DNA of 32,000 nt from Pseudomonas aeruginosa (GCF_001457615.1 NZ_LN831024.1:2430001-2462000), one strand, 5' to 3'; shown: positions 7,968-32,000, counted from the stretch's first letter. Notes: generated from the sequence alone by a model not told the origin. Numbers and translations are program-made.

Positions 7968-8987
7968 ATGATCGACTCGACCTTCTCCCGCGCCACCTGG
8001 CTCAACTCGCTGCACATGTCGACCCTCACTCTCTCGCTGCTGGAGAAGGAAGGGTTCGCCCGCGAGCAACTGCTCGAAGGCAGTGGCATCACCCCCGCCG
8101 ACCTGCTCGACCTGCGGCGCCTGATCAGCCCCTGGCAGGAGCAGCAGGTGTTCGCCAACGCCTGCCGGCTCAGCGACGAGCCGGCCCTCGGCCTGCGCCT
8201 GGGACTGCGCACGCGGATTTCCGCCTACGGCCTGCTCGGCTACGCGCTGCTCTCCGCGCCGACCCTCGGCGAGGCGCTGCGCATCGGCCTCAGCTATCCG
8301 GTCTTGCTCGGCACCTACTTCCACCTGTCGCTGGAAGTCGCCGACGGCCGCGCCTGGCTGGTGGCCACCGGCTACGGCGAGGACGAGGCGCTGCGGCCAT
8401 TCAACACCGAGCTTTGCCTGGGCTCGCTGAAGGTCACCTGCGCCGACCTGCTCGGCCAGCCGCTGCCCTTGCTGGAAGCGGCCTTCGACTATGCCGGCGA
8501 CGAGGCGATGGCGCGGGCCTACGCCGAGGGTTTCGCCTGCGAGTTGCACTTCGAACGCGAGCGCAGCGCCATCGGCTTCGCCGCCGAATGGCTGGAGCGC
8601 CCGTTGCCGCTGGCCGACCCGGTGACCCACCGGGAGATGCTGGAACAGTGCCGGCGGCAGAACATCGACCTGGCCGCGCGTCGTGCCTGGCTGGACAAGG
8701 TCCGGGCGATCCTCGCCGAGCGCTTGCAGGACCCGCCCGGCCTGGAGGAACTGGCCAGGCGCCTGAACTGTTCGTCGCGCAGCCTGCGCCGGCACCTTCA
8801 GCAGCAGCGCACCAGCTACCAGCAATTGCTCGACGAGTTGCGCTTCGCCCGCGCCAAGGAGTTGTTGCAGAGCGGCGACATGCCGATCTACCGGATCGCC
8901 GAGGAACTCGGCTTCAGCGAGACCGCCAGCCTGCGCCATGCCTTCCAGCGCTGGAGCGGCCAGCCGCCGAGCCATTTCCGCGCCTGA
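7968..8987 (+). CDS. AraC-family transcriptional regulator with an N-terminal AraC-binding-like sensor domain, 339 aa
   Basis: C-terminal double HTH (LEELARRLNCSSRSLRRHLQQQRTSYQQLLDELRFARAKELLQSGDMPIYRIAEELGFSETASLRHAFQRWSGQPPSHFR). Confidence 0.85.
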   Translation: MIDSTFSRATWLNSLHMSTLTLSLLEKEGFAREQLLEGSGITPADLLDLRRLISPWQEQQVFANACRLSDEPALGLRLGLRTRISAYGLLGYALLSAPTLGEALRIGLSYPVLLGTYFHLSLEVADGRAWLVATGYGEDEALRPFNTELCLGSLKVTCADLLGQPLPLLEAAFDYAGDEAMARAYAEGFACELHFERERSAIGFAAEWLERPLPLADPVTHREMLEQCRRQNIDLAARRAWLDKVRAILAERLQDPPGLEELARRLNCSSRSLRRHLQQQRTSYQQLLDELRFARAKELLQSGDMPIYRIAEELGFSETASLRHAFQRWSGQPPSHFRA

Positions 8988-9279: not shown

Positions 9280-9513
9280 TCAGGATGCCGGCTCTTCGAT
9301 CAGCCGGTCATAGGGCGGCAGGCCGCTGTATTGGCCCAGGGCTTGCTCGTAGGCGTTCTTCAGGTCGTCGGCGGCGAGGTCGTAGCCGACCAGCAACTGT
9401 TCGAGTTCAGCGGCGTTCTGCGGGTCGTCGTTCTGCAACTGCGCGTCGAGTTCGCGGGTGCGCGCGGCGACGCACTGGATCGCCACCATCAGGGTCTGGG
9501 GTTTCAGGTTCAT
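9280..9513 (-). CDS. tsi2: Small acidic immunity protein for the upstream toxin (Tsi2), 77 aa
   Basis: ORF 9280..9513: MNLKPQTLMVAIQCVAARTRELDAQLQNDDPQNAAELEQLLVGYDLAADDLKNAYEQALGQYSGLPPYDRLIEEPAS. It is rich in D/E/Q/L, has helical/coiled-coil character and has no signal peptide. Its start lies 9 nt after the toxin stop, with an AGGAG overlapping that stop. I recognise the sequence as P. aeruginosa Tsi2. Confidence 0.9.
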   Translation of the reverse strand: MNLKPQTLMVAIQCVAARTRELDAQLQNDDPQNAAELEQLLVGYDLAADDLKNAYEQALGQYSGLPPYDRLIEEPAS

Positions 9514-9522
9514 GGTTCACTC

Positions 9523-9999
9523 CTAGAGCCCGCGGGCTTTTTCCCATTGGCGGCGGATGGCGTTGCGCACGAAGTTGTCCAGTTGGCCCATGAGGACCTC
9601 CCGGTACATCGGCTTGGCCGGCATGATGGTGTAGTGGGTGGCTTGCAGGCGCTTGTTGTAGCTGTCCTGCTTCACCTTAAGGTCCGGCGGGATGTCGGTG
9701 CCGTCGGGTATCACGAAGTCGCCGTCGGCGCGGCGCAGCACGCCGGCGCGGTCGAACACCGAGGTGCCGCCGGTGTCCGGGGCGTAGAGGCCGTCGCGGC
9801 CGGCGACGATGTCCGGCGCGCGGGCGGGGACGCCAGGGGTGTTGGGGCTGTCGAAGGTCGGATGCAGCAGCGGGGCGACTTCCGCAGCCTCGGCGAGTTC
9901 CTTGTCGGGACGCAGGTAGCGACCGACGTCGCCGTCGTAGTTGGCCTTGAATACCGCCCGGTAGAGGGTGAGGCTGGTTTTCTCGTAGTCGTAGGACAT
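9523..9999 (-). CDS. tse2: Type VI secretion exported toxin Tse2, 158 aa
   Basis: 3' part of ORF 9523..11472. The real start is ATG 9999-9997, preceded by AGGGAAG (10013-10007). MSYDYEKTSLTLYRAVFKANYDGDVGRYLRPDKELAEAAEVAPLLHPTFDSPNTPGVPARAPDIVAGRDGLYAPDTGGTSVFDRAGVLRRADGDFVIPDGTDIPPDLKVKQDSYNKRLQATHYTIMPAKPMYREVLMGQLDNFVRNAIRRQWEKARGL. No signal peptide or TM segment. I recognise it as Tse2 (PA2702). Confidence 0.9.
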   Translation of the reverse strand: MSYDYEKTSLTLYRAVFKANYDGDVGRYLRPDKELAEAAEVAPLLHPTFDSPNTPGVPARAPDIVAGRDGLYAPDTGGTSVFDRAGVLRRADGDFVIPDGTDIPPDLKVKQDSYNKRLQATHYTIMPAKPMYREVLMGQLDNFVRNAIRRQWEKARGL

Positions 10000-10145
10000 G
10001 CGTGGACTTCCCTGTGGGTTGCGTTCGCGGCGCCGCGGGTGCGCGGCATCGCTACCGGCCACCGTCCTTGTGGCGCCATCGGCGAGCAGGATAACAGCCG
10101 TGGGCGGATCCGCCAGGGGCAGGCGACGACCGTCGCCCGGGAGGC

Positions 10146-11735
10146 TCAAGGCCTGGCCGCGCCGTGCAGGTAATGGCGGATGCGCACCTCCACGCCGGCG
10201 CTCTGGAAGCGCCGGGCGGCGGCCTCGACCCGCAACTCGCCGCGGGTCACCCGCTGGTGGTGGCGCAGGTGCTCCAGCCAGGATTCGTCGATGAAGAACT
10301 CCAGCCACAGGCGACGGTTGCCGCTGTCCTGGACCAGCCCCCAGGACACCGCGCCGTTGCGCCGACGCATGGCGCGCACCTCGACCATCGCCGCCTGGAA
10401 TGCCGCGGCGTCCTGTGGGTCGATGTCGTACTCGAGGGTGACCATCACCGGGCCGCGTTCCTGGTCCACCTCTTCGTCGACAAGTGGTGCCGGCCAGTGC
10501 AGCGACGGCGCGAGGTCCTCGGCCTCGGTGACCGGCAGCCGGCAGCGCAGCGACGCGAACAGGCCGAGCAGCAGCGCGGCGCTGGCGCAGAGCAGGGCGA
10601 AGGTGATCGACAGGTGGCTGGCGACCAGACCCCACAGGGCGCCGCCGGCGGCCATGCTGCCGAAGAACACCAGGATGTAGACCGCCAGCGCGCGGGCGCG
10701 GACCCAGGCCGGCACGGAGGTCTGCGCGGCGACCTGCAGGCTGGAGAGCACGGCGATCCATGCCGCGCCGCTGAGCAGCATCACCGGCACCAGCAAATAG
10801 AGGTTGCGCAGCAGCGCCAGGGCCACCAGCACCAGTGCGTAGAGCACGCTGGAGAGCAGCACCAGGCGGTCGCTGCCGAGGCGTTCGCGCAGGCGCGGCA
10901 GGAACGCGGCGCCGAGCACCGCGCCGACGCCGACGCTGCCCAGCAGCAGGCCGAAGTCCATGGCGTTGCCATGCAGTTCGCCGCGCACGATCAGGGGCAG
11001 CAGCGACATGCCGGCGCTGGCGCCGAGGAAGAACGCCACCGCACGCACCAGCACCGATTGCAGTGGCCTCGAGCTGCGGCTGTAGCGCCAGCCGGCGCGC
11101 AGGGCGCCGAACAGGCGTTCCGCCGGCAGCACCGAGGGCACGGCCTCGCGTTTCCAGGCCAGCAGCACGGCGATCACCGCGAAGAAGGAGAGGGCGTTGA
11201 GGGCGAAGGTCAGCCAGGGGCCGACCAGGCTCACCAGCACCCCGGCGATGGCCGGTCCGACCGCCCGCGCCAGGTTGACCCCGACACTGGACAGCGCCAC
11301 CGCCGCCGGCAGTTCGTCCTTGCCCACCAGTTCCGGAGTGGTGGCGCTCCAGGCCGGCATCATCAGCGCGGTGCCGATGCCCATGCACAGGGTCAGGCCG
11401 AGCAGCAGCCAGACGCTGGTCAACTGGAGCAGGGTGAGGCCGGCCAGCAGGGTGGCCACCAAGGCCATCCACAATTGCGCGCCGAGCAGGTAGCGGCGCT
11501 TGTCGACGATATCGGCGAGGGCGCCGGCCGGCAGGGCCAGGAAGAACATCGGCAGCGATCCGGCGACCTGCACCAGGGCCACGTTCAGCGGGCTGGCGGA
11601 GAGCGAGGTCATCAGCCAGCCGGCGCCCACCTCATGCATCCAGGTGCCGATGTTCGAGGCGATGCTGGCCAGCCATAGCCAGCGGAAGGTGGCTTGGCGC
11701 AGGGGACTCCAGGGTGAGGCGGCGGGTGCGGTCAT
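10146..11735 (-). CDS. MFS transporter of the MFS_3/EntS-like (DUF894) type with a C-terminal ABM-like cytoplasmic domain, 529 aa
   Basis: ORF 10146..11735. N-terminus ...LRQATFRWLWLASIASNIGTWMHEVGAGWLMTSL is typical of the enterobactin-exporter-like MFS_3 family, with about 12 TM helices. The last ~130 aa are soluble (see findings). Confidence 0.9.
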   Translation of the reverse strand: MTAPAASPWSPLRQATFRWLWLASIASNIGTWMHEVGAGWLMTSLSASPLNVALVQVAGSLPMFFLALPAGALADIVDKRRYLLGAQLWMALVATLLAGLTLLQLTSVWLLLGLTLCMGIGTALMMPAWSATTPELVGKDELPAAVALSSVGVNLARAVGPAIAGVLVSLVGPWLTFALNALSFFAVIAVLLAWKREAVPSVLPAERLFGALRAGWRYSRSSRPLQSVLVRAVAFFLGASAGMSLLPLIVRGELHGNAMDFGLLLGSVGVGAVLGAAFLPRLRERLGSDRLVLLSSVLYALVLVALALLRNLYLLVPVMLLSGAAWIAVLSSLQVAAQTSVPAWVRARALAVYILVFFGSMAAGGALWGLVASHLSITFALLCASAALLLGLFASLRCRLPVTEAEDLAPSLHWPAPLVDEEVDQERGPVMVTLEYDIDPQDAAAFQAAMVEVRAMRRRNGAVSWGLVQDSGNRRLWLEFFIDESWLEHLRHHQRVTRGELRVEAAARRFQSAGVEVRIRHYLHGAARP

Positions 11736-25373: not shown

Positions 25374-26714
25374 TCAGGCGGCCGCCGGCAGCCAGAGGTG
25401 CAGGCACAATCCGGGCTTGCCGTTGCTGGCCCAGAGCCGGCCGCCCTGTAGCTCGATGGCGCGCCGGGCGATCGCCAGGCCGAGGCCAAAACCTTCGCCG
25501 GCGCTATCGTCCAGGCGCTGGTAGGGGAGGAAGATGCGTTCCAACTGGTCTTCCGCCACGCCAGGGCCCTGGTCCTGCAGGCGCAGGTGCCAGAAGTCGC
25601 CCTCGCGCTCGCCGTCGAGGCTGACCGTGCCGTCCTCGGGCGAGTGACGGATGGCGTTGCGCAGGAGGTTTTCCATGGCCTGGGCCAGGCTGTCCAGGTG
25701 TACCTCGACGCGACAGTCGACGCCCAAGCGGCAGGGTAGCCGCGCCGGGTCCCAGCCGCTTTCGAAACAGGCGTCCTCGCGCAGCGCTTCCCACACCGAC
25801 AGCGCCAGCACCGGCTCGGTGGGCAGTTGCGGGCGCTCGGTGTCCATCCAGGCGAGGTCGAGGGTGTCTTCCAGCAGTCGTTGCATGTCGCCGATTTCGC
25901 GATCCAGGCGCTGGCGCAACTGTTCCGGCGGTAGCTCACTGTCGTGGGCGATGCGCAGGCGCGCCAGCGGCGTGCGCAGTTCGTGGGACAGGGTGCGCAG
26001 CAGCAGGCGCTGCTGGGCGAGACTCAGGCGCAGGCGCTCGGCCATGTGCTCCAGGGCCTGGGCCAGCTCGCCCAGTTCGTCGCGGCGGGCCGCCAGCGGT
26101 GCGGCGAGGGGAGTGCTTTCCAGTTCGTCGGCGCGCAGGGCGTCGGCGCGATCGCGCAAGCGGTTCAGCGGCACCACCAGGTGGCGATAGAGCAGCAGGC
26201 CGAGCAGGGCGGCCAGCAGGGTCGGGACTATGCCGTGGGTGACCAGGTGGGTCCAGGGGGTCAGCCCGCCGGGCAGCAGGCGCTCCGGTAACTGGATTAC
26301 CAGCCGGCCCTGCTCGGGATGTCCGGGGAACTCGATGCTGACGTACGGCAGTTCGTCCTGCAGGCGCCGGCTCATCGGCCAGTCGAGCTTGCGCATGAAG
26401 GTCAGGTGGCTCGACTCCTCGGTGCTTAGCGGCGTGCTGCCGAGGCTTTCCAGGTGCGGTCCGACCAGCGCCACCCAGGTATCTTCCTTCGCCGACAGTT
26501 CCTTGCGGAAGCGTTCGGCGCCCGCGGCACCCTCGCTGTGCCAGGCATCCTCCGCCTGCCGCGCGTAGTCCGCCAGGTAGCTGCGGTCGGCCGGGGCGAG
26601 GAAGTAGGTGCTGCGCTCCACCGACAGGCCCCAGGTGTAGATCAGCCAGGTCAGCAGCAGGCAGAAGCCGACCTGCAGCAGCGCCAGTTTCCATAACAGC
26701 GGGTGCCTGCGCAT
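25374..26714 (-). CDS. pfeS: Sensor histidine kinase of the enterobactin-responsive two-component system, 446 aa
   Basis: ORF 25374..26714. It has two TM helices flanking a periplasmic domain, the H-box LSHELRTPLARL, and N/G boxes (LLRNAIRHSP, DQGPGV, GFGLGLAI). Its ATG shares one base with the pfeR stop (TGATG). Confidence 0.93.
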   Translation of the reverse strand: MRRHPLLWKLALLQVGFCLLLTWLIYTWGLSVERSTYFLAPADRSYLADYARQAEDAWHSEGAAGAERFRKELSAKEDTWVALVGPHLESLGSTPLSTEESSHLTFMRKLDWPMSRRLQDELPYVSIEFPGHPEQGRLVIQLPERLLPGGLTPWTHLVTHGIVPTLLAALLGLLLYRHLVVPLNRLRDRADALRADELESTPLAAPLAARRDELGELAQALEHMAERLRLSLAQQRLLLRTLSHELRTPLARLRIAHDSELPPEQLRQRLDREIGDMQRLLEDTLDLAWMDTERPQLPTEPVLALSVWEALREDACFESGWDPARLPCRLGVDCRVEVHLDSLAQAMENLLRNAIRHSPEDGTVSLDGEREGDFWHLRLQDQGPGVAEDQLERIFLPYQRLDDSAGEGFGLGLAIARRAIELQGGRLWASNGKPGLCLHLWLPAAA

Positions 26715-27631
26715 CAGGGGTGTTCCGTCTCCACCAGTAGGTAGCCCTGGCCGCGTACCGCCTGGATCTGCAGGTGACGGACGGCGACCGCGGCGAGTTT
26801 GCGCCGCAGGTTGCAGACGTGCACGTCGAGACCGCGGTCGAGGCGCGTGTAGCTGCGGTGCAGCACGCTCCGGTAGAGGAACGGCTTGCTCAGCGCCTCG
26901 CCAGCGTGTTCGCGGAGCGTCGCCAGGAGGCGGTACTCGGATGGCGTCAGCCCCGCCGGAAGGCCCTGGTGGAGCACATCCTGGGCCTGGTCGTCGAACA
27001 CCAGCCGGGTATCCCGCCGCTGCGCCGACGGCAGGCGGTCCAGTCGTACGCGGCGCAGCAGGGCGTCGGTGCGGGCATCCAGCTCGGCCAGGCTGAACGG
27101 CTTCGGCAGGTAGTCGTCGGCGCCGCGGGTGAAGCCGCTGATGCGATCCTGTTCGGCGCCCAGGGCCGACATCAGCATCACCGGCGTGGCCTGCTCGCGG
27201 CGCAGCGACTCCAGCAGGGCCAGGCCGTCGAGGCCGGGTAGCATGATGTCCAGCAACACCAGGTCGAACGCTTCGCGCCCGGCGGCTTCCAGTCCGTGCG
27301 AGCCATCGCCGCAGACGGTTACGCGGAAGCCGCGCCGGCGGAAATGCGCGTCGAGATCCTCGCGTAGGCGTGGGTCGTCTTCGACCAGCAGCAGGCGGGG
27401 AGATGGGATTGAAATATGAGAATGATTCACGTTCGTGAATATCTCATTTTTGCCGGGTATCGGGCAATGGGCCAATGCGCCGCAGCGTGCTCGGAGCGGA
27501 AATACTTTTCGACAAAGCCGTCGTTGCTTCGGCTTTGGTTCTGGCTTAGGGTCGGCGGGTCCGCAGGAGGCGGGCAGGAGTGTCGTGGCTATTGGCCAGC
27601 CTTTCGCGACGGCACTGGGTTGTACGATCAT
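26714..27631 (-). CDS. pfeR: OmpR-family response regulator (start uncertain: 305 aa from ATG 27631, or 238 aa from GTG 27430)
   Basis: ORF 26714..27631. The receiver domain starts at RLLLVEDDPRLREDL...DLVLLDIMLPGLDG, and there is a winged-helix output domain (...GLDVHVCNLRRKL...VRGQGYLL). The first ~77 codons of the long ORF have no response-regulator similarity. Confidence 0.9.
   Translation of the reverse strand: MIVQPSAVAKGWPIATTLLPASCGPADPKPEPKPKQRRLCRKVFPLRARCGALAHCPIPGKNEIFTNVNHSHISIPSPRLLLVEDDPRLREDLDAHFRRRGFRVTVCGDGSHGLEAAGREAFDLVLLDIMLPGLDGLALLESLRREQATPVMLMSALGAEQDRISGFTRGADDYLPKPFSLAELDARTDALLRRVRLDRLPSAQRRDTRLVFDDQAQDVLHQGLPAGLTPSEYRLLATLREHAGEALSKPFLYRSVLHRSYTRLDRGLDVHVCNLRRKLAAVAVRHLQIQAVRGQGYLLVETEHP
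27411..27452. promoter_or_regulatory. AT-rich imperfect palindrome (core ATTCAC-GTTC-GTGAAT), candidate Fur/PfeR operator of pfeRS
   Basis: GAAATATGAGAATGATTCAC GTTC GTGAATATCTCATTTTTG. The arms align with two gaps, and the best Fur-consensus match I found by hand is only 10-11/19. It is the only AT-rich element between pfeR and vgrG. Confidence 0.35.
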
Positions 27632-27695
27632 CTGGCGCGCTGCTGGCGCGTTGTTCGGGCCGCCCGCCGCAGGTGACTATCAAGGAAGATTCCCC

Positions 27696-29765
27696 ATGCT
27701 GTTCTCCCAACACACCCGCCTGGTACACGTGGACTCCCCGCTGGGACCCGAGGTCCTGCAACTGCAACGGCTGGAGGGTCGCGAAGAGCTGGGCCGGCTG
27801 TTCAGCCACGAGCTCGAACTGGTCTCGAGCAATCCCGCCTTGCCTCTGGATGCCCTATTGGGCAAGCCGATGAGCCTCGCGCTGGAACTCCCCGGCGGCA
27901 GCCGGCGGTATTTCCACGGCATCGTCGCGCGCTGTAGCCAGGGCGCCGGCGCCGGCCAGTTCGCCAGCTACCAGGTCACCCTGCGGCCCTGGCTGTGGCT
28001 GCTGACGCGCACCTCCGACTGCCGCATCTTCCAGAACCAGAAGGTCCCGGACATCATCAAGCAGGTGTTCCGCGACCTTGGCTTCTCCGACTTCGAGGAC
28101 GCCCTGAGCCGCTCCTACCGCGAGTGGGAATACTGTGTGCAATACCGCGAGACCAGCTTCGATTTCGTCAGCCGGCTGATGGAGCAGGAAGGCATCTACT
28201 ACTGGTTCCGCCACGAAAAGAAGCGCCACATCCTGGTGCTCTCCGATGCCTACGGCGCGCACCACAGCCCGGCCGGCTACACCAGCGTGCCCTATTACCC
28301 GCCGAGCCTCGGCCATCGCGAGCGCGACCACTTCTTCGACTGGCACATGGCGCGCGAGGTCCAGCCCGGCTCGCTGAGCCTCAACGACTACGACTTCCAG
28401 CGTCCCGGCACCCGCCTGGAAGTGCGCTCCAATGTCGGGCGCGCCCATGCCGCGGCCGACTACCCGCTCTACGACTACCCTGGCGAGTATGTGCAGAGTC
28501 AGGACGGCGAACACTATGCACGGACCCGCATCGAGGCGATCCAGACCCAGTACGAGCGAGTTCGCCTGCGGGGATGCGCCAGGGGTATCGGGGCGGGCCA
28601 TCTGTTCCACCTGAGCAACTACCCGCGCCTGGACCAGAACCGCGAATACCTGGTGGTTGGCGCCGAGTACCGGGTAGTCCAGGAACTCTACGAGACCGGT
28701 AATGGCGGGGGCGGCGCGCAGTTCGAGAGCGAGCTGGACTGTATCGACGCCGGCCAGGCTTTCCGCCCCTTGCCGTCGACCCCGGTGCCGGTGGTGCGCG
28801 GCCCGCAGACCGCGGTGGTGGTCGGGCCCAAGGGCGAGGAGATCTGGACCGACCAGTATGGCCGGGTCAAGGTGCATTTCCACTGGGACCGCCACGACCA
28901 GTCCAACGAGAACAGCTCCTGCTGGATGCGCGTCTCGCAGGCCTGGGCCGGGAAGAACTGGGGCTCGATCCAGATCCCGCGGATCGGCCAGGAAGTGATC
29001 GTCAGCTTCCTCGAAGGCGACCCGGACCGGCCGATCATCACCGGGCGGGTCTACAACGCCGAGCAGACGGTGCCCTACGAGCTGCCGGCGAACGCTACCC
29101 AGAGCGGCACCAAGAGCCGTTCGAGCAAGGGCGGCACGCCGGCCAACTTCAACGAGATCCGCATGGAGGACAAGAAGGGCGCCGAGCAGTTGTTCATCCA
29201 TGCCGAGAGGAACCAGGACATCGAGGTCGAGAACGACGAGACCCACTGGGTCGGCCACGACCGGACCAAGACCATCGACCACGACGAGACGGTGCATGTG
29301 AAGCACGATCGCACCGAGACCGTGGACAACAACGAGACCATCACCGTGCATGCCAACCGCAGCAAGACGGTCGACCGCAACGAGACGGTCAGGATCGGCA
29401 TGAACAAGACGGAAACCATCCTCATGGCCTCGTTGCAGAACGTCGGCATGGGGCGCATGGAAAACGTCGGGCTCGGCTACAGCCTGAACGTCGGCATGAT
29501 GATGAACACCGTGGTCGGGCTGAACCAGAGCACCCAGGTGATGAAGAAGAAGACCTTGTCGGTGGGCGATAGCTACGAAGTGAGCGTGGGCGGCAGCGAC
29601 GATGGCTCGAAGATCACCCTGGACGGCCAGAGCATCACCCTCGGCAGCCAGCGCATCGAGCTGACCGCCGACCGCGAGATCCTCTTGCGCTGCGGCCAGA
29701 GCACGATCCGCCTGACGCCGGGGGAGATCGAGATCCTCTCGCCCAATGTCGATATCAACTGTTGA
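27696..29765 (+). CDS. vgrG1c: Type VI secretion spike protein VgrG, 689 aa
   Basis: Within ORF 27435..29765. ATG 27696 lies behind AAGGAAG. It has a gp27-like N-terminal domain (MLFSQHTRLVHVDSPLG...EELGRLF...YFHGIV), a gp5 OB-fold (GPQTAVVVGPKGEEIWTDQYGRVKVHFHWDR), and beta-helix repeats (ETVHVKHDRTETVDNNETITVHANRSKTVDRNETVRIG). Confidence 0.95.
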   Translation: MLFSQHTRLVHVDSPLGPEVLQLQRLEGREELGRLFSHELELVSSNPALPLDALLGKPMSLALELPGGSRRYFHGIVARCSQGAGAGQFASYQVTLRPWLWLLTRTSDCRIFQNQKVPDIIKQVFRDLGFSDFEDALSRSYREWEYCVQYRETSFDFVSRLMEQEGIYYWFRHEKKRHILVLSDAYGAHHSPAGYTSVPYYPPSLGHRERDHFFDWHMAREVQPGSLSLNDYDFQRPGTRLEVRSNVGRAHAAADYPLYDYPGEYVQSQDGEHYARTRIEAIQTQYERVRLRGCARGIGAGHLFHLSNYPRLDQNREYLVVGAEYRVVQELYETGNGGGGAQFESELDCIDAGQAFRPLPSTPVPVVRGPQTAVVVGPKGEEIWTDQYGRVKVHFHWDRHDQSNENSSCWMRVSQAWAGKNWGSIQIPRIGQEVIVSFLEGDPDRPIITGRVYNAEQTVPYELPANATQSGTKSRSSKGGTPANFNEIRMEDKKGAEQLFIHAERNQDIEVENDETHWVGHDRTKTIDHDETVHVKHDRTETVDNNETITVHANRSKTVDRNETVRIGMNKTETILMASLQNVGMGRMENVGLGYSLNVGMMMNTVVGLNQSTQVMKKKTLSVGDSYEVSVGGSDDGSKITLDGQSITLGSQRIELTADREILLRCGQSTIRLTPGEIEILSPNVDINC

Positions 29766-29814
29766 GCGGCGGGCGGATGTCCTGTCGCGGCTTTTCCCAA
29801 GGAAGGATGGATAG

Positions 29815-32000
29815 ATGAGCGGCCTACCGGTTTCCCATGTCGGCGAGAAAGTCTCGGGAGGGGTTATCTCCACCGGCTCGCCCACCGTGCACGTCGGCAG
29901 CAGCGCGGTCGGCCTGGCCGACCGGGTGTCCGCCTGCGTGCCGTTGGTGGGCAAGCCGGTCAACCCGATGCTCGGCAGCAAGCTGCTGCCGGAAGAGGTC
30001 GATTTCGCCCTGGCGGCGCCGGACACCTTCACCTTCGCCCGTGGCTACCTGTCGAGCAACCCCCGTATCGGCCGGCTCGGCCGGGGCTGGTGGCTGCCGG
30101 GCGAGAGCATGCACCTGGAACTGAGCGAAGACGCCTGCGTGCTGGTCGACGCCCAGGGCCGCCGGATCGGCTTTCCTGCGCTGGCTCCCGGTGCCCAGCA
30201 TTATTCCGGCAGCGAGGAGCTGTGGCTGCGCCGTGGCGGTTCGAGCGGCGGCGAAGCGCAGGCCTGGCGCGGGCGCTGGGCGGCGGTGCCGGCCGAACTG
30301 CAGACGCAGGAGGGCTCCGTGCTGGTGCTGTCCGGCCACAGCTACCTGCATTTCCAGCGTTGCCCCGACGGTATCTGGCGCCTGCAGGCCAGCTTCGGCC
30401 GCGCCGGCTACCGCACCGAGTTCCGCTGGAGCGGACGTGGCCTGCTCACCGGCGTGCGCGACAGCGCCGGGCGCAGCTATGCGCTGGTCTACCAGCAAGC
30501 CTGCGAGCCGAGCGAGGGCGACGACGGCCTGCGTCTGTTCGGCGTGATCCTGGCCAGCCACGACGGACCGCCTCCGGACTACATCGATCCGCAGAGCCCG
30601 GGGCTCGACTGGCTGGTGCGCTACCAGTTCAGCGACAGCGGCGATCTGATCGCCGTGCGCGACCGTCTTGGCCAGGTGGTCCGGGTATTCGCCTGGCGCG
30701 AGCACATGCTGGTCGCCCACGGCGAACCGGGCGGGCTGGAGGTTCGCTACGAGTGGGATGTCCATGCTCCGCACGGGCGGGTCGTGAAGCAGATCGAGGC
30801 GGGCGGCCTGACCCGTACCTTCCGCTACCTGCGCGATGCCACCGAGGTCAGCGACAGCCTCGGCCGCGTCGAACGCTACGAGTTCGCCGGCGAGGGCGGG
30901 CAGCGGCGCTGGACCGCGCTGGTCAGGGCCGACGGCAGCCGTAGCGAGTTCGACTACGACCTGTTCGGCCGCCTGGTCGCCATGCGCGATCCGCTGGGAC
31001 GGGAGACGCGGCGCCGGCGCGATGGCCAGGGGCGGATGCTCGAGGAGGAGTCGCCGGGCAAGGCGCGCTATCGCAAGCGCGTCGACGAAGAGACCGGGCT
31101 GCTGGTCGAGCTGGAGGACGCGATGCAGCGCCGCTGGACCTTCGAGCGCGACGAACGGGGCAATGCGACGACGGTGCGCGGCCCGGCCGGCAGCACCCGC
31201 TACGCCTACGAAGACCCGCGCCTGCCCGACCGGCCGACGCGAATCGTCGACCCGCGCGGCGGCGAGCGGCGCCTGGAGTGGAACCGCTTCGGCCTGTTGG
31301 CCGCGTTGACCGATTGTTCCGGCCAGGTCTGGCGTTACGACTACGACAACGAAGGACGTTTGGTCGCCAGCAGCGACCCGCTGGGACAACTGACCCGGCG
31401 CCGCTACGACCCGCTGGGGCAACTGATCGGCCTGGAATTGGCCGACGGCAGCGCCCTGAGCTATGAATACGACGCCCTTGGGCGGCAGACCCGTATCGCC
31501 GATGCCGAGGGGCACGCCACGCTGTTTTCCTGGGGGCACGGCGATCTGCTGGTGCGGGTTTCCGACGCCGGCGGCGGCGAATTGTCCTACCTGCACGACG
31601 AAGCCGGCAGGCTGGTCGCCCTGACCAACGAGAACGGCGTCCAGGCGCAGTTCCGCTACGACCTGCTGGACCGTCTGGTGGAAGAGACCGGCTTCGACGG
31701 TCGTCGCCAACGCTATCGCTACAACGCCGCTGACGAACTGATCGCCCGCGAGGATGCCGACGGTCGCGAGACCACCTATGCCTACGACCGCGACGGCCGC
31801 CTGGCGAGCATCCGGGTTCCCGCCACCGAGCACGCACCGGCCCTGGTCGAGCGTTACCGCTGGTTGGCCGACGGCCGCCTGGCCAGCGCCGGCGGGGCGG
31901 ATTGCGAGGTGCGCTATACGTACGACGAGGTCGGTAACCTGCGCCTGGAAAGCCAGGTACATGCCGACGGTTGGGTCTACAGCGTCGAGCACAGCCACGA
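29815..32000 (+). CDS. tse5: PAAR-like/Rhs (YD-repeat) polymorphic toxin, N-terminal ~728 codons (continues past the window end)
   Basis: ATG 29815 lies behind GGAAGGATGG, and the frame is open to 32000 (not in the ORF track because it runs off the edge). My translation begins MSGLPVSHVGEKVSGGVISTGSPTVHVGSSAVGLADRVSAC (PAAR-like). It is followed by many YD repeats (YEYDALGRQTRIADAEGHATLFSW, YRYNAADELIAREDADGRETTYAYDRDGRL...). The symbol is from memory of the PAO1 locus (also called rhsP1). Confidence 0.9.
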   Translation, partial: MSGLPVSHVGEKVSGGVISTGSPTVHVGSSAVGLADRVSACVPLVGKPVNPMLGSKLLPEEVDFALAAPDTFTFARGYLSSNPRIGRLGRGWWLPGESMHLELSEDACVLVDAQGRRIGFPALAPGAQHYSGSEELWLRRGGSSGGEAQAWRGRWAAVPAELQTQEGSVLVLSGHSYLHFQRCPDGIWRLQASFGRAGYRTEFRWSGRGLLTGVRDSAGRSYALVYQQACEPSEGDDGLRLFGVILASHDGPPPDYIDPQSPGLDWLVRYQFSDSGDLIAVRDRLGQVVRVFAWREHMLVAHGEPGGLEVRYEWDVHAPHGRVVKQIEAGGLTRTFRYLRDATEVSDSLGRVERYEFAGEGGQRRWTALVRADGSRSEFDYDLFGRLVAMRDPLGRETRRRRDGQGRMLEEESPGKARYRKRVDEETGLLVELEDAMQRRWTFERDERGNATTVRGPAGSTRYAYEDPRLPDRPTRIVDPRGGERRLEWNRFGLLAALTDCSGQVWRYDYDNEGRLVASSDPLGQLTRRRYDPLGQLIGLELADGSALSYEYDALGRQTRIADAEGHATLFSWGHGDLLVRVSDAGGGELSYLHDEAGRLVALTNENGVQAQFRYDLLDRLVEETGFDGRRQRYRYNAADELIAREDADGRETTYAYDRDGRLASIRVPATEHAPALVERYRWLADGRLASAGGADCEVRYTYDEVGNLRLESQVHADGWVYSVEHSH

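Follow-up and report, generated by a model that had tools for sequence, protein, structure and literature searches.

The vgrG1c-tse5 effector island of Pseudomonas aeruginosa: probable identity of a vgrG-rhs locus and a predicted single PAAR-like repeat at the toxin N-terminus

Closest described systems

The best described counterpart of the locus considered here is the vgrG1c-tse5 pair of Pseudomonas aeruginosa, which encodes a spike protein and an Rhs effector of the H1 type VI secretion system (H1-T6SS). The vgrG1c gene (PA2685) is contiguous with rhsP1/tse5 (PA2684), and killing by RhsP1 requires both VgrG1c and the H1-T6SS, with VgrG1a being no substitute for VgrG1c (Hachani et al., 2014, PMC4067218). 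The toxin is the 149-amino acid (aa) C-terminus found after the PTLAYDPTGL motif, and immunity is conferred by RhsI1/Tsi5, the product of a non-annotated open reading frame (ORF) of 76 aa with two transmembrane segments, which overlaps the 3′ end of rhsP1 (PMC4067218). Here, we analysed a window of 32,000 nucleotides (nt) from P. aeruginosa (GCF_001457615.1, NZ_LN831024.1:2430001-2462000; all positions are counted from its first letter), where a vgrG gene is directly followed by an rhs gene. As detailed below, this locus is very probably the vgrG1c-tse5 operon, i.e., an accessory effector island of the H1-T6SS.

A cryo-electron microscopy (cryo-EM) study of Tse5 at 2.45 Å distinguishes three fragments, NT (residues 1-47), Shell (48-1168), and CT (1169-1317), with cleavage at K47|P48 and at L1168|I1169, this latter cut being made by a D1141/D1164 protease (PMC10684867). 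The C-terminal cleavage is essential for toxicity and the N-terminal one is dispensable, in contrast to Rhs1 and TseI, for which N-terminal cleavage is essential; the NT fragment is disordered over residues 1-29 and anchored within the cage through residues 30-47 (PMC10684867). Tse5-CT forms ion pores, and target cells are depolarised (González-Magaña et al., PMC9637101). In addition, a tse5/tse6 double deletion impairs H1-T6SS assembly just as a vgrG1c/vgrG1a double deletion does, which points to Tse5 acting as a structural load of the spike (bioRxiv 10.1101/2022.09.14.507963). Published work has shown a functional coupling of vgrG1c and tse5, with Tse5 carried by VgrG1c trimers.

Other Rhs effectors, such as RhsA-EagR1 of P. 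protegens (PDB 7Q97) and Rhs1 and Rhs2 of Serratia, are, like Tse5, VgrG-loaded cages with a self-cleaved C-terminal toxin, and residues 237-411 of RhsA align with residues 40-203 of Tse5 (homologous plug-entry region). However, Tse5 has neither the prePAAR motif nor the transmembrane region of these class I prePAAR effectors, and it also lacks their full (split) PAAR domain and linked eag gene. Another related arrangement is the VgrG-Rhs fusion of Advenella mimigardefordensis (AHG65567, PDB 8QJA), whose VgrG part of ~690 residues aligns with residues 7-683 of VgrG1c. Such fusions, P0031 among them, share the GxPVNPxLGxK plug entry and the Rhs cage with Tse5; in contrast to the vgrG1c-tse5 products, the two parts are covalently joined and there is no PAAR repeat, the match to Tse5 beginning at residue 33. 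Whether vgrG1c-tse5 is a split version of the 8QJA fusion was also considered and rejected, as a chimera of the VgrG1c C-terminus and the Tse5 N-terminus did not match 8QJA at E<=0.01.

Identity of the vgrG-rhs locus

An earlier sequence-only reading of this DNA had reported a 689-aa VgrG followed after 49 bp by a large ORF with a YD-repeat Rhs shell running past the window, and had assigned the pair to VgrG1c and Tse5/RhsP1 of the H1-T6SS. The ORF list and translations agree with this layout, and the identification is borne out by the match of the Rhs protein to PDB 8CP6, by an exact record for the VgrG protein, and by the published contiguity of the two genes (PMC4067218). The locus is composed of the following features:

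27696-29765, + strand: vgrG1c (PA2685, also vgrG4), T6SS spike gene of 689 aa, stop included (ORF, Pfam, VgrG1a structures, exact record)
29397-29762, + strand: C-terminal extension of VgrG1c, residues 568-689, ending in SPNVDINC (beyond the VgrG1a chain matches)
29766-29814, + strand: 49-bp gap with the tse5 ribosome-binding site (AGGAAGGA, 29800-29807) (ORF list, signal scan)
29815-32000, + strand: tse5/rhsP1 (PA2684), 5′ part, codons 1-728 of 1317 (Pfam, PDB 8CP6 match)
29950-30174, + strand: DUF6531, residues 46-120, N-terminal plug of the cage (Pfam, 54.9-57.8 bits; PMC10684867)
30175-32000, + strand: YD/RHS-repeat shell, residues ~121-728, continuing past the window (Pfam; Rhs and teneurin YD-shell structures)

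The vgrG1c ORF runs from ATG 27696 to a stop codon at 29763-29765. Although the longest ORF in this frame begins at GTG 27435 (776 aa), ATG 27696 is preferred as the start codon, given the Shine-Dalgarno-like AAGGAAG site upstream of it and a VgrG1a match that sets in at residue 5. The protein displays the Pfam domains of a VgrG/TssI spike (hub, OB-fold, and beta-helix) in order and above their cut-offs, namely Phage_GPD (residues 29-330, 364 bits), Phage_base_V (386-453, 54 bits), and Gp5_trimer_C (470-576, 156 bits). In a PDB sequence search, the VgrG1a structures 4MTK and 4UHV match VgrG1c over residues 5-567 only, and VgrG1c is thus a VgrG1a paralogue with its own C-terminal extension of 122 residues. 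This extension includes a weak DUF2345 match (residues 645-683, 23 bits versus a cut-off of 30.7), and its beginning and end are conserved among orthologues (93% invariant columns at residues 561-600 and 89% at 681-689). Consistent with the assignment to VgrG1c, the gene lies directly upstream of tse5 and beside the gene that we take to be pfeR, and the exact 689-aa sequence is recorded as TssI/VgrG of Pseudomonas on at least 1000 contigs. Of note, the 90%-identity protein cluster of this VgrG also holds many 1317-aa Tse5 sequences and is represented by one of them (P0160); the presence of two unrelated proteins in one cluster is likely a bridging artefact, caused for instance by an occasional gene call that spans the 49-bp gap through fusion or a frameshift.

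The tse5 ORF begins at ATG 29815 and cannot reach further upstream, since it is immediately preceded by an in-frame TAG (29812-29814). Its product contains 11 RHS_repeat stretches (219 bits) behind the N-terminal plug, matches Rhs cage structures, and remains open up to position 32000. More specifically, it matches the entries for 'Toxin protein Tse5' (PDB 8CP6 and 9I9Y), with residues 1-47 corresponding to chain A and residues 48-728 to chain B, so that the break between the PDB chains falls on the known self-cleavage site. A single mismatch to the published protein is visible in the printed 8CP6 alignment, V versus A in 'HGDLL[V/A]RV'. The 689-aa VgrG, the K47|P48 boundary, and pfe-type neighbours are all as in the VgrG1c/Tse5/Tsi5 system of strains PAO1 and PAK.

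Five related loci were compared with this one, from P. paraeruginosa (90% identity) and from three Pseudomonas and one Phytopseudomonas species (65-72%). In each of them, the gene for a VgrG1c orthologue (77-96% identity) immediately precedes the Rhs gene, with a gap of ~45-140 bp. The P48-V-N-P-M-L-G sequence is invariant in Tse5 of the window and in the five loci. The N-terminal cut follows K47 in the P. aeruginosa and P. paraeruginosa proteins, and a Q in the four more distant orthologues (…VGQ|PVNPMLG).

Scanning of the 49-bp gap revealed no ORF and no terminator-like site, nor was a sigma-70-like promoter found in the vgrG-rhs interval. Such a short gap devoid of a terminator suggests that vgrG1c and tse5 are co-transcribed. 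It was also observed that a CAAGGAAG motif is present right before both start codons, that of vgrG1c (tatCAAGGAAGattccccATG, 27682-27698) and that of tse5 (tccCAAGGAAGgatggatagATG, 29797-29817). These CAAGGAAG-type, GGA-rich sites presumably resemble binding sites for RsmA/CsrA, and control of H1-T6SS genes by the RetS/Gac-Rsm pathway would fit this.

The N-terminus of Tse5

The N-terminus of Tse5 is referred to in the literature as 'PAAR-like' or 'cryptic PAAR-like' (PMC10684867; PMC9637101), and the sequence-only reading had proposed that the first ~40 residues look like a PAAR-type cone. While homology to PAAR repeats holds, the region was found to contain one repeat instead of the three of a PAAR cone and to score below the threshold of the PAAR family. 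Two features are relevant here:

29818-29907, + strand: single PAAR-like repeat of Tse5-NT, residues 2-31, GLPVSHVGEKVSGGVISTGSPTVHVG, presumed VgrG1c-docking element (repeat profile, hhalign)
29902-29958, + strand: residues 30-47, threading into the Rhs shell, and autocleavage site K47|P48, codons 29953-29958 (PDB chain boundaries, PMC10684867)

Only one Pfam family, PF05488 (PAAR), matches any part of the Tse5 N-terminus, at 12.6-15.4 bits and hence below its gathering cut-off of 27, and DUF4150/Tox-PAAR-like (PF13665) gave no match at E<=10. When a profile of the N-terminus was compared with PDB sequences, Tse5 itself alone was matched, and no solved PAAR protein. AlphaFold2 modelling of residues 1-130 without an alignment reached a mean predicted local distance difference test score (pLDDT) of 37, too low to be interpreted, and a homologue search with the same residues gave just short, near-identical fragments.

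An exhaustive phmmer search with residues 1-130 retrieved 261 cluster representatives. Many of these start where Tse5 does, with a MSGKPAARxGDxVxxGxIxxGSxTVLIG consensus to be compared with MSGLPVSHVGEKVSGGVISTGSPTVHVG in Tse5, while others have ~60 extra N-terminal residues with two further PAAR repeats; still others have DUF4150-like or prePAAR-plus-transmembrane N-termini, and one is a VgrG-Rhs fusion. In one 113-aa record (P0021), the N-terminus of Tse5 is systematically altered by P->L, S->F, H->Y, A->V, T->I, and R->W substitutions; as these are all C-to-T at the DNA level, the record looks like the translation of assembled bisulfite-converted or deaminated reads.

A hidden Markov model (HMM) of the single repeat was built from 24 one-repeat N-termini, leaving out Tse5 and its orthologue, and residues 2-31 of Tse5 score 35.3 bits on it. 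Repeats were then counted in 76 proteins, comprising Tse5 and the 75 representatives that are 400 aa or longer and have a recognisable GxPVNPxLGxK plug entry. One repeat is present in 48 of the 76, three in 6, two in 2 (both N-terminally truncated records), and none in 20. On PF05488, the three-repeat N-termini score 66-142 bits and the single-repeat ones 18-31 bits. Finally, in an hhalign comparison, residues 2-30 of the Tse5 orthologue pair with columns 62-91/93 of the three-repeat alignment (probability 94.6%, E 7e-8), i.e., with the third repeat only of three-repeat PAAR domains. Taken together, the single-repeat HMM, the PF05488 scores, and the third-repeat match indicate that Tse5-NT is PAAR-derived and that it corresponds to one third of a canonical cone. 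The other two repeats cannot come from an upstream extension because of the in-frame TAG at 29812-29814. Another conceivable source, the C-terminus of VgrG1c (…SPNVDINC), was rejected, as neither VgrG1c nor its orthologues gave a match to the repeat HMM, even with filters off.

The MSGKPAARxGD… Rhs proteins share with Tse5 the same one-repeat N-terminus of ~47 residues before the plug entry; they keep a literal P-A-A-R where Tse5 has P-V-S-H, and their C-terminal toxins differ. We take this N-terminus to be that of the classical E. coli Rhs proteins. Among Tse5 orthologues, conservation along the protein is highest at residues 1-80, with 80-82% invariant columns versus 28-68% elsewhere, which fits a role as an interface, and residues 2-31 may be the VgrG1c-docking element. 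The single-repeat nature of the N-terminus is not stated in the literature searched, where no data on docking stoichiometry were found either; this predicted feature is a modest refinement and the sole addition to the known picture.

Docking of Tse5 on VgrG1c

How one third of a cone could sit on a trimeric spike can be envisaged in two ways. In the first, which we consider somewhat the better bet, a single Tse5 docks asymmetrically, its repeat extending one face of the VgrG1c tip or binding the C-terminal extension, so that the spike is partly capped. This is the default reading since one PAAR-Rhs effector per spike is the established pattern (bioRxiv 10.1101/2024.02.26.582050), and the conserved 122-residue extension of VgrG1c, past the region matched by VgrG1a, could add contacts. 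Nevertheless, a single repeat would offer a small interface compared to a canonical PAAR domain.

Alternatively, three one-repeat chains of the Tse5 type could assemble a PAAR-like cone in trans, the VgrG1c trimer then carrying three cages in a 'megaspike'. The equivalence of Tse5-NT to the third repeat only of three-repeat domains and the lack of any PAAR-like repeat in VgrG1c itself are in line with such an assembly. Moreover, the three repeats of one three-repeat relative (P0089) score 31.9, 38.8, and 33.3 bits on the single-repeat HMM; these similar scores suggest that any position of a cone can take this kind of repeat. Residues 1-29 are disordered in monomeric Tse5 (PMC10684867), and VgrG-Rhs fusions form 3:3 complexes of ~691 kDa in solution (bioRxiv 10.1101/2024.02.26.582050). 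On the other hand, the VgrG trimers known before these fusions all bind one PAAR-Rhs monomer (bioRxiv 10.1101/2024.02.26.582050), and purified Tse5 yielded a single particle, not a trimer, when its structure was solved (PMC10684867). There is also no linker between the repeat (residues 2-31) and the shell-buried segment (30-47), and three cages of 126 kDa would therefore crowd the tip. Overall, assembly in trans appears unlikely. For Tse5 and the many MSGKPAAR… Rhs proteins, a tip made of three N-termini, with three cages and three toxins per shot, is an outside chance that the one-repeat N-terminus raises.

Absence of an adaptor gene

Adaptor genes are frequent at vgrG-rhs loci, and one of the Eag/DUF1795, Tap/DUF4123, or DUF2169 type encoded elsewhere in the genome could be required by Tse5, the stretch examined covering 32 kb only. 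The earlier claim that no such gene separates spike and toxin is supported by the 49-bp gap, which is too short for one. The same is true of the five related loci, where the gaps are also too short for an adaptor gene, so that the adaptor-free layout is conserved across species. In the window, a Pfam scan of the 26 probable genes gave no match to an adaptor or chaperone family, including DUF1795.

Furthermore, Eag chaperones recognise prePAAR effectors by binding to their transmembrane segments at the N-terminus (PMC7773334), and Tse5 offers neither feature: residues 1-262 contain no prePAAR motif (AARxxDxxxH) and no transmembrane segment, their maximum 19-residue hydropathy (KD19) being 1.25 versus 2.1-2.6 in prePAAR Rhs relatives. 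There is likewise no linked eag gene. In agreement with this, a 2016 review indicates 'direct VgrG-targeting for Tse5' and names EagT6 for Tse6 only (PMC4899435). The need for an unlinked adaptor is hence very improbable, and the absence of an adaptor gene at this locus is to be expected rather than an anomaly, since the prePAAR motif and the transmembrane segment by which Eag recognises effectors are both missing from Tse5.

Toxin end, immunity, and proposed mechanism

As the sequence-only reading had noted, the toxin domain and the immunity gene lie outside the window, which stops at codon 728 of the 1317-codon tse5. No sign of decay was seen in these first 728 codons. Tse5 of P. aeruginosa is 1317 aa long in its full-length records, which carry PTLAYDPTGL and a CT domain, and in all five related loci the Rhs protein is of 1312-1319 aa, with PSVAYDP[TS]GL and a conserved CT. 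In each of these five loci, an ORF of 67-85 aa with two hydrophobic stretches overlaps the Rhs gene and is Tsi5-like.

The proposed mechanism combines these observations with the published work, the earlier claim of delivery on the cognate VgrG agreeing with the published VgrG1c- and H1-T6SS-dependent killing (PMC4067218). VgrG1c would form a trimeric spike, and the Rhs cage of Tse5 would cut itself into NT (1-47), shell (48-1168), and CT (1169-1317) pieces that stay together. Tse5 would then dock straight onto the VgrG1c tip via its short N-terminus, the putative docking element, and loaded spikes would aid assembly of the apparatus. No adaptor or chaperone gene should be needed, as Tse5 is without N-terminal transmembrane segments to shield. 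After firing, Tse5-CT would exit the cage, enter the target's inner membrane, and form depolarising ion pores, while the producer would be protected by Tsi5, the small protein with two transmembrane segments encoded by the ORF overlapping the tse5 3′ end. Of these steps, the dependence on VgrG1c, the self-cleavage, the pores, and the immunity have been demonstrated in published work, and the docking role of residues 2-31 is our inference.

Several points weigh against this interpretation. A structure of a VgrG1c-Tse5 complex was looked for and none was found, and the docking mode is one that we infer, given the disorder of residues 1-29 in the cryo-EM map (PMC10684867). As a single repeat, the N-terminus amounts to a third of a cone and stays below the Pfam PAAR threshold. 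Lastly, the 3′ 45% of tse5, the cleavage motif, the toxin, and tsi5 lie beyond position 32000 and are assumed to be intact here.

Neighbouring genes

Upstream of vgrG1c, on the opposite strand, Pfam identifies an OmpR-type response regulator, a sensor kinase, a TonB-dependent receptor, and an esterase, which we read as the pfeR, pfeS, pfeA, and pfeE of the PAO1 map. The presence of pfeR, pfeS, and pfeA beside vgrG1c-tse5 is presumably as at PA2684-PA2688 in PAO1. The pfeR ORF (26714-27631, - strand) is 305 aa from its ATG, its receiver domain (Pfam, residues 81-187) being preceded by ~75 residues, and a 255-aa ORF is found at the corresponding place in the P. paraeruginosa locus. The true start of pfeR is therefore probably internal, and the divergent promoter region between pfeR and vgrG1c would be roughly 290 bp instead of 64 bp.

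A second effector/immunity pair of the H1-T6SS, tsi2 (9280-9513, - strand) and tse2 (9523-9999, - strand), is located ~18 kb upstream of vgrG1c. Tsi2 is of 77 aa (T6SS_Tsi2-like, 154 bits), and Tse2 is an ADP-ribosyltransferase-like protein of 158 aa starting with MSYDYEKTSL (PF18648, 56 bits), within a longer mechanical ORF (9523-10173). ARAGORN also reports a 98-nt 'tRNA-Trp' (8535-8632, - strand) inside an ORF for an AraC-type regulator (7968-8987, + strand); its length and its location in a high-GC3 coding region suggest that it is probably a false positive. At the end of the P. paraeruginosa ATCC 9027 locus as analysed, ~8 kb downstream of its tse5 orthologue, there is a second match of the vgrG type (L001 22329-23108), with 30% identity to VgrG1c residues 40-307.

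Significance

The locus has already been the subject of genetic, biochemical, and cryo-EM characterisation; its identification in the window is correct but nothing new. The finding as given is the re-identification of a textbook effector island, with no new T6SS biology, and it shows that a reading of raw sequence recovers the correct call for vgrG1c-tse5. Beyond this, sequence comparison suggests that the docking element of Tse5 is a one-third PAAR common to a large group of Rhs toxins. If it is true that the tip is non-canonical, whether built from three chains in trans or asymmetric, the count of payloads per firing would change for a common class of Rhs effectors.

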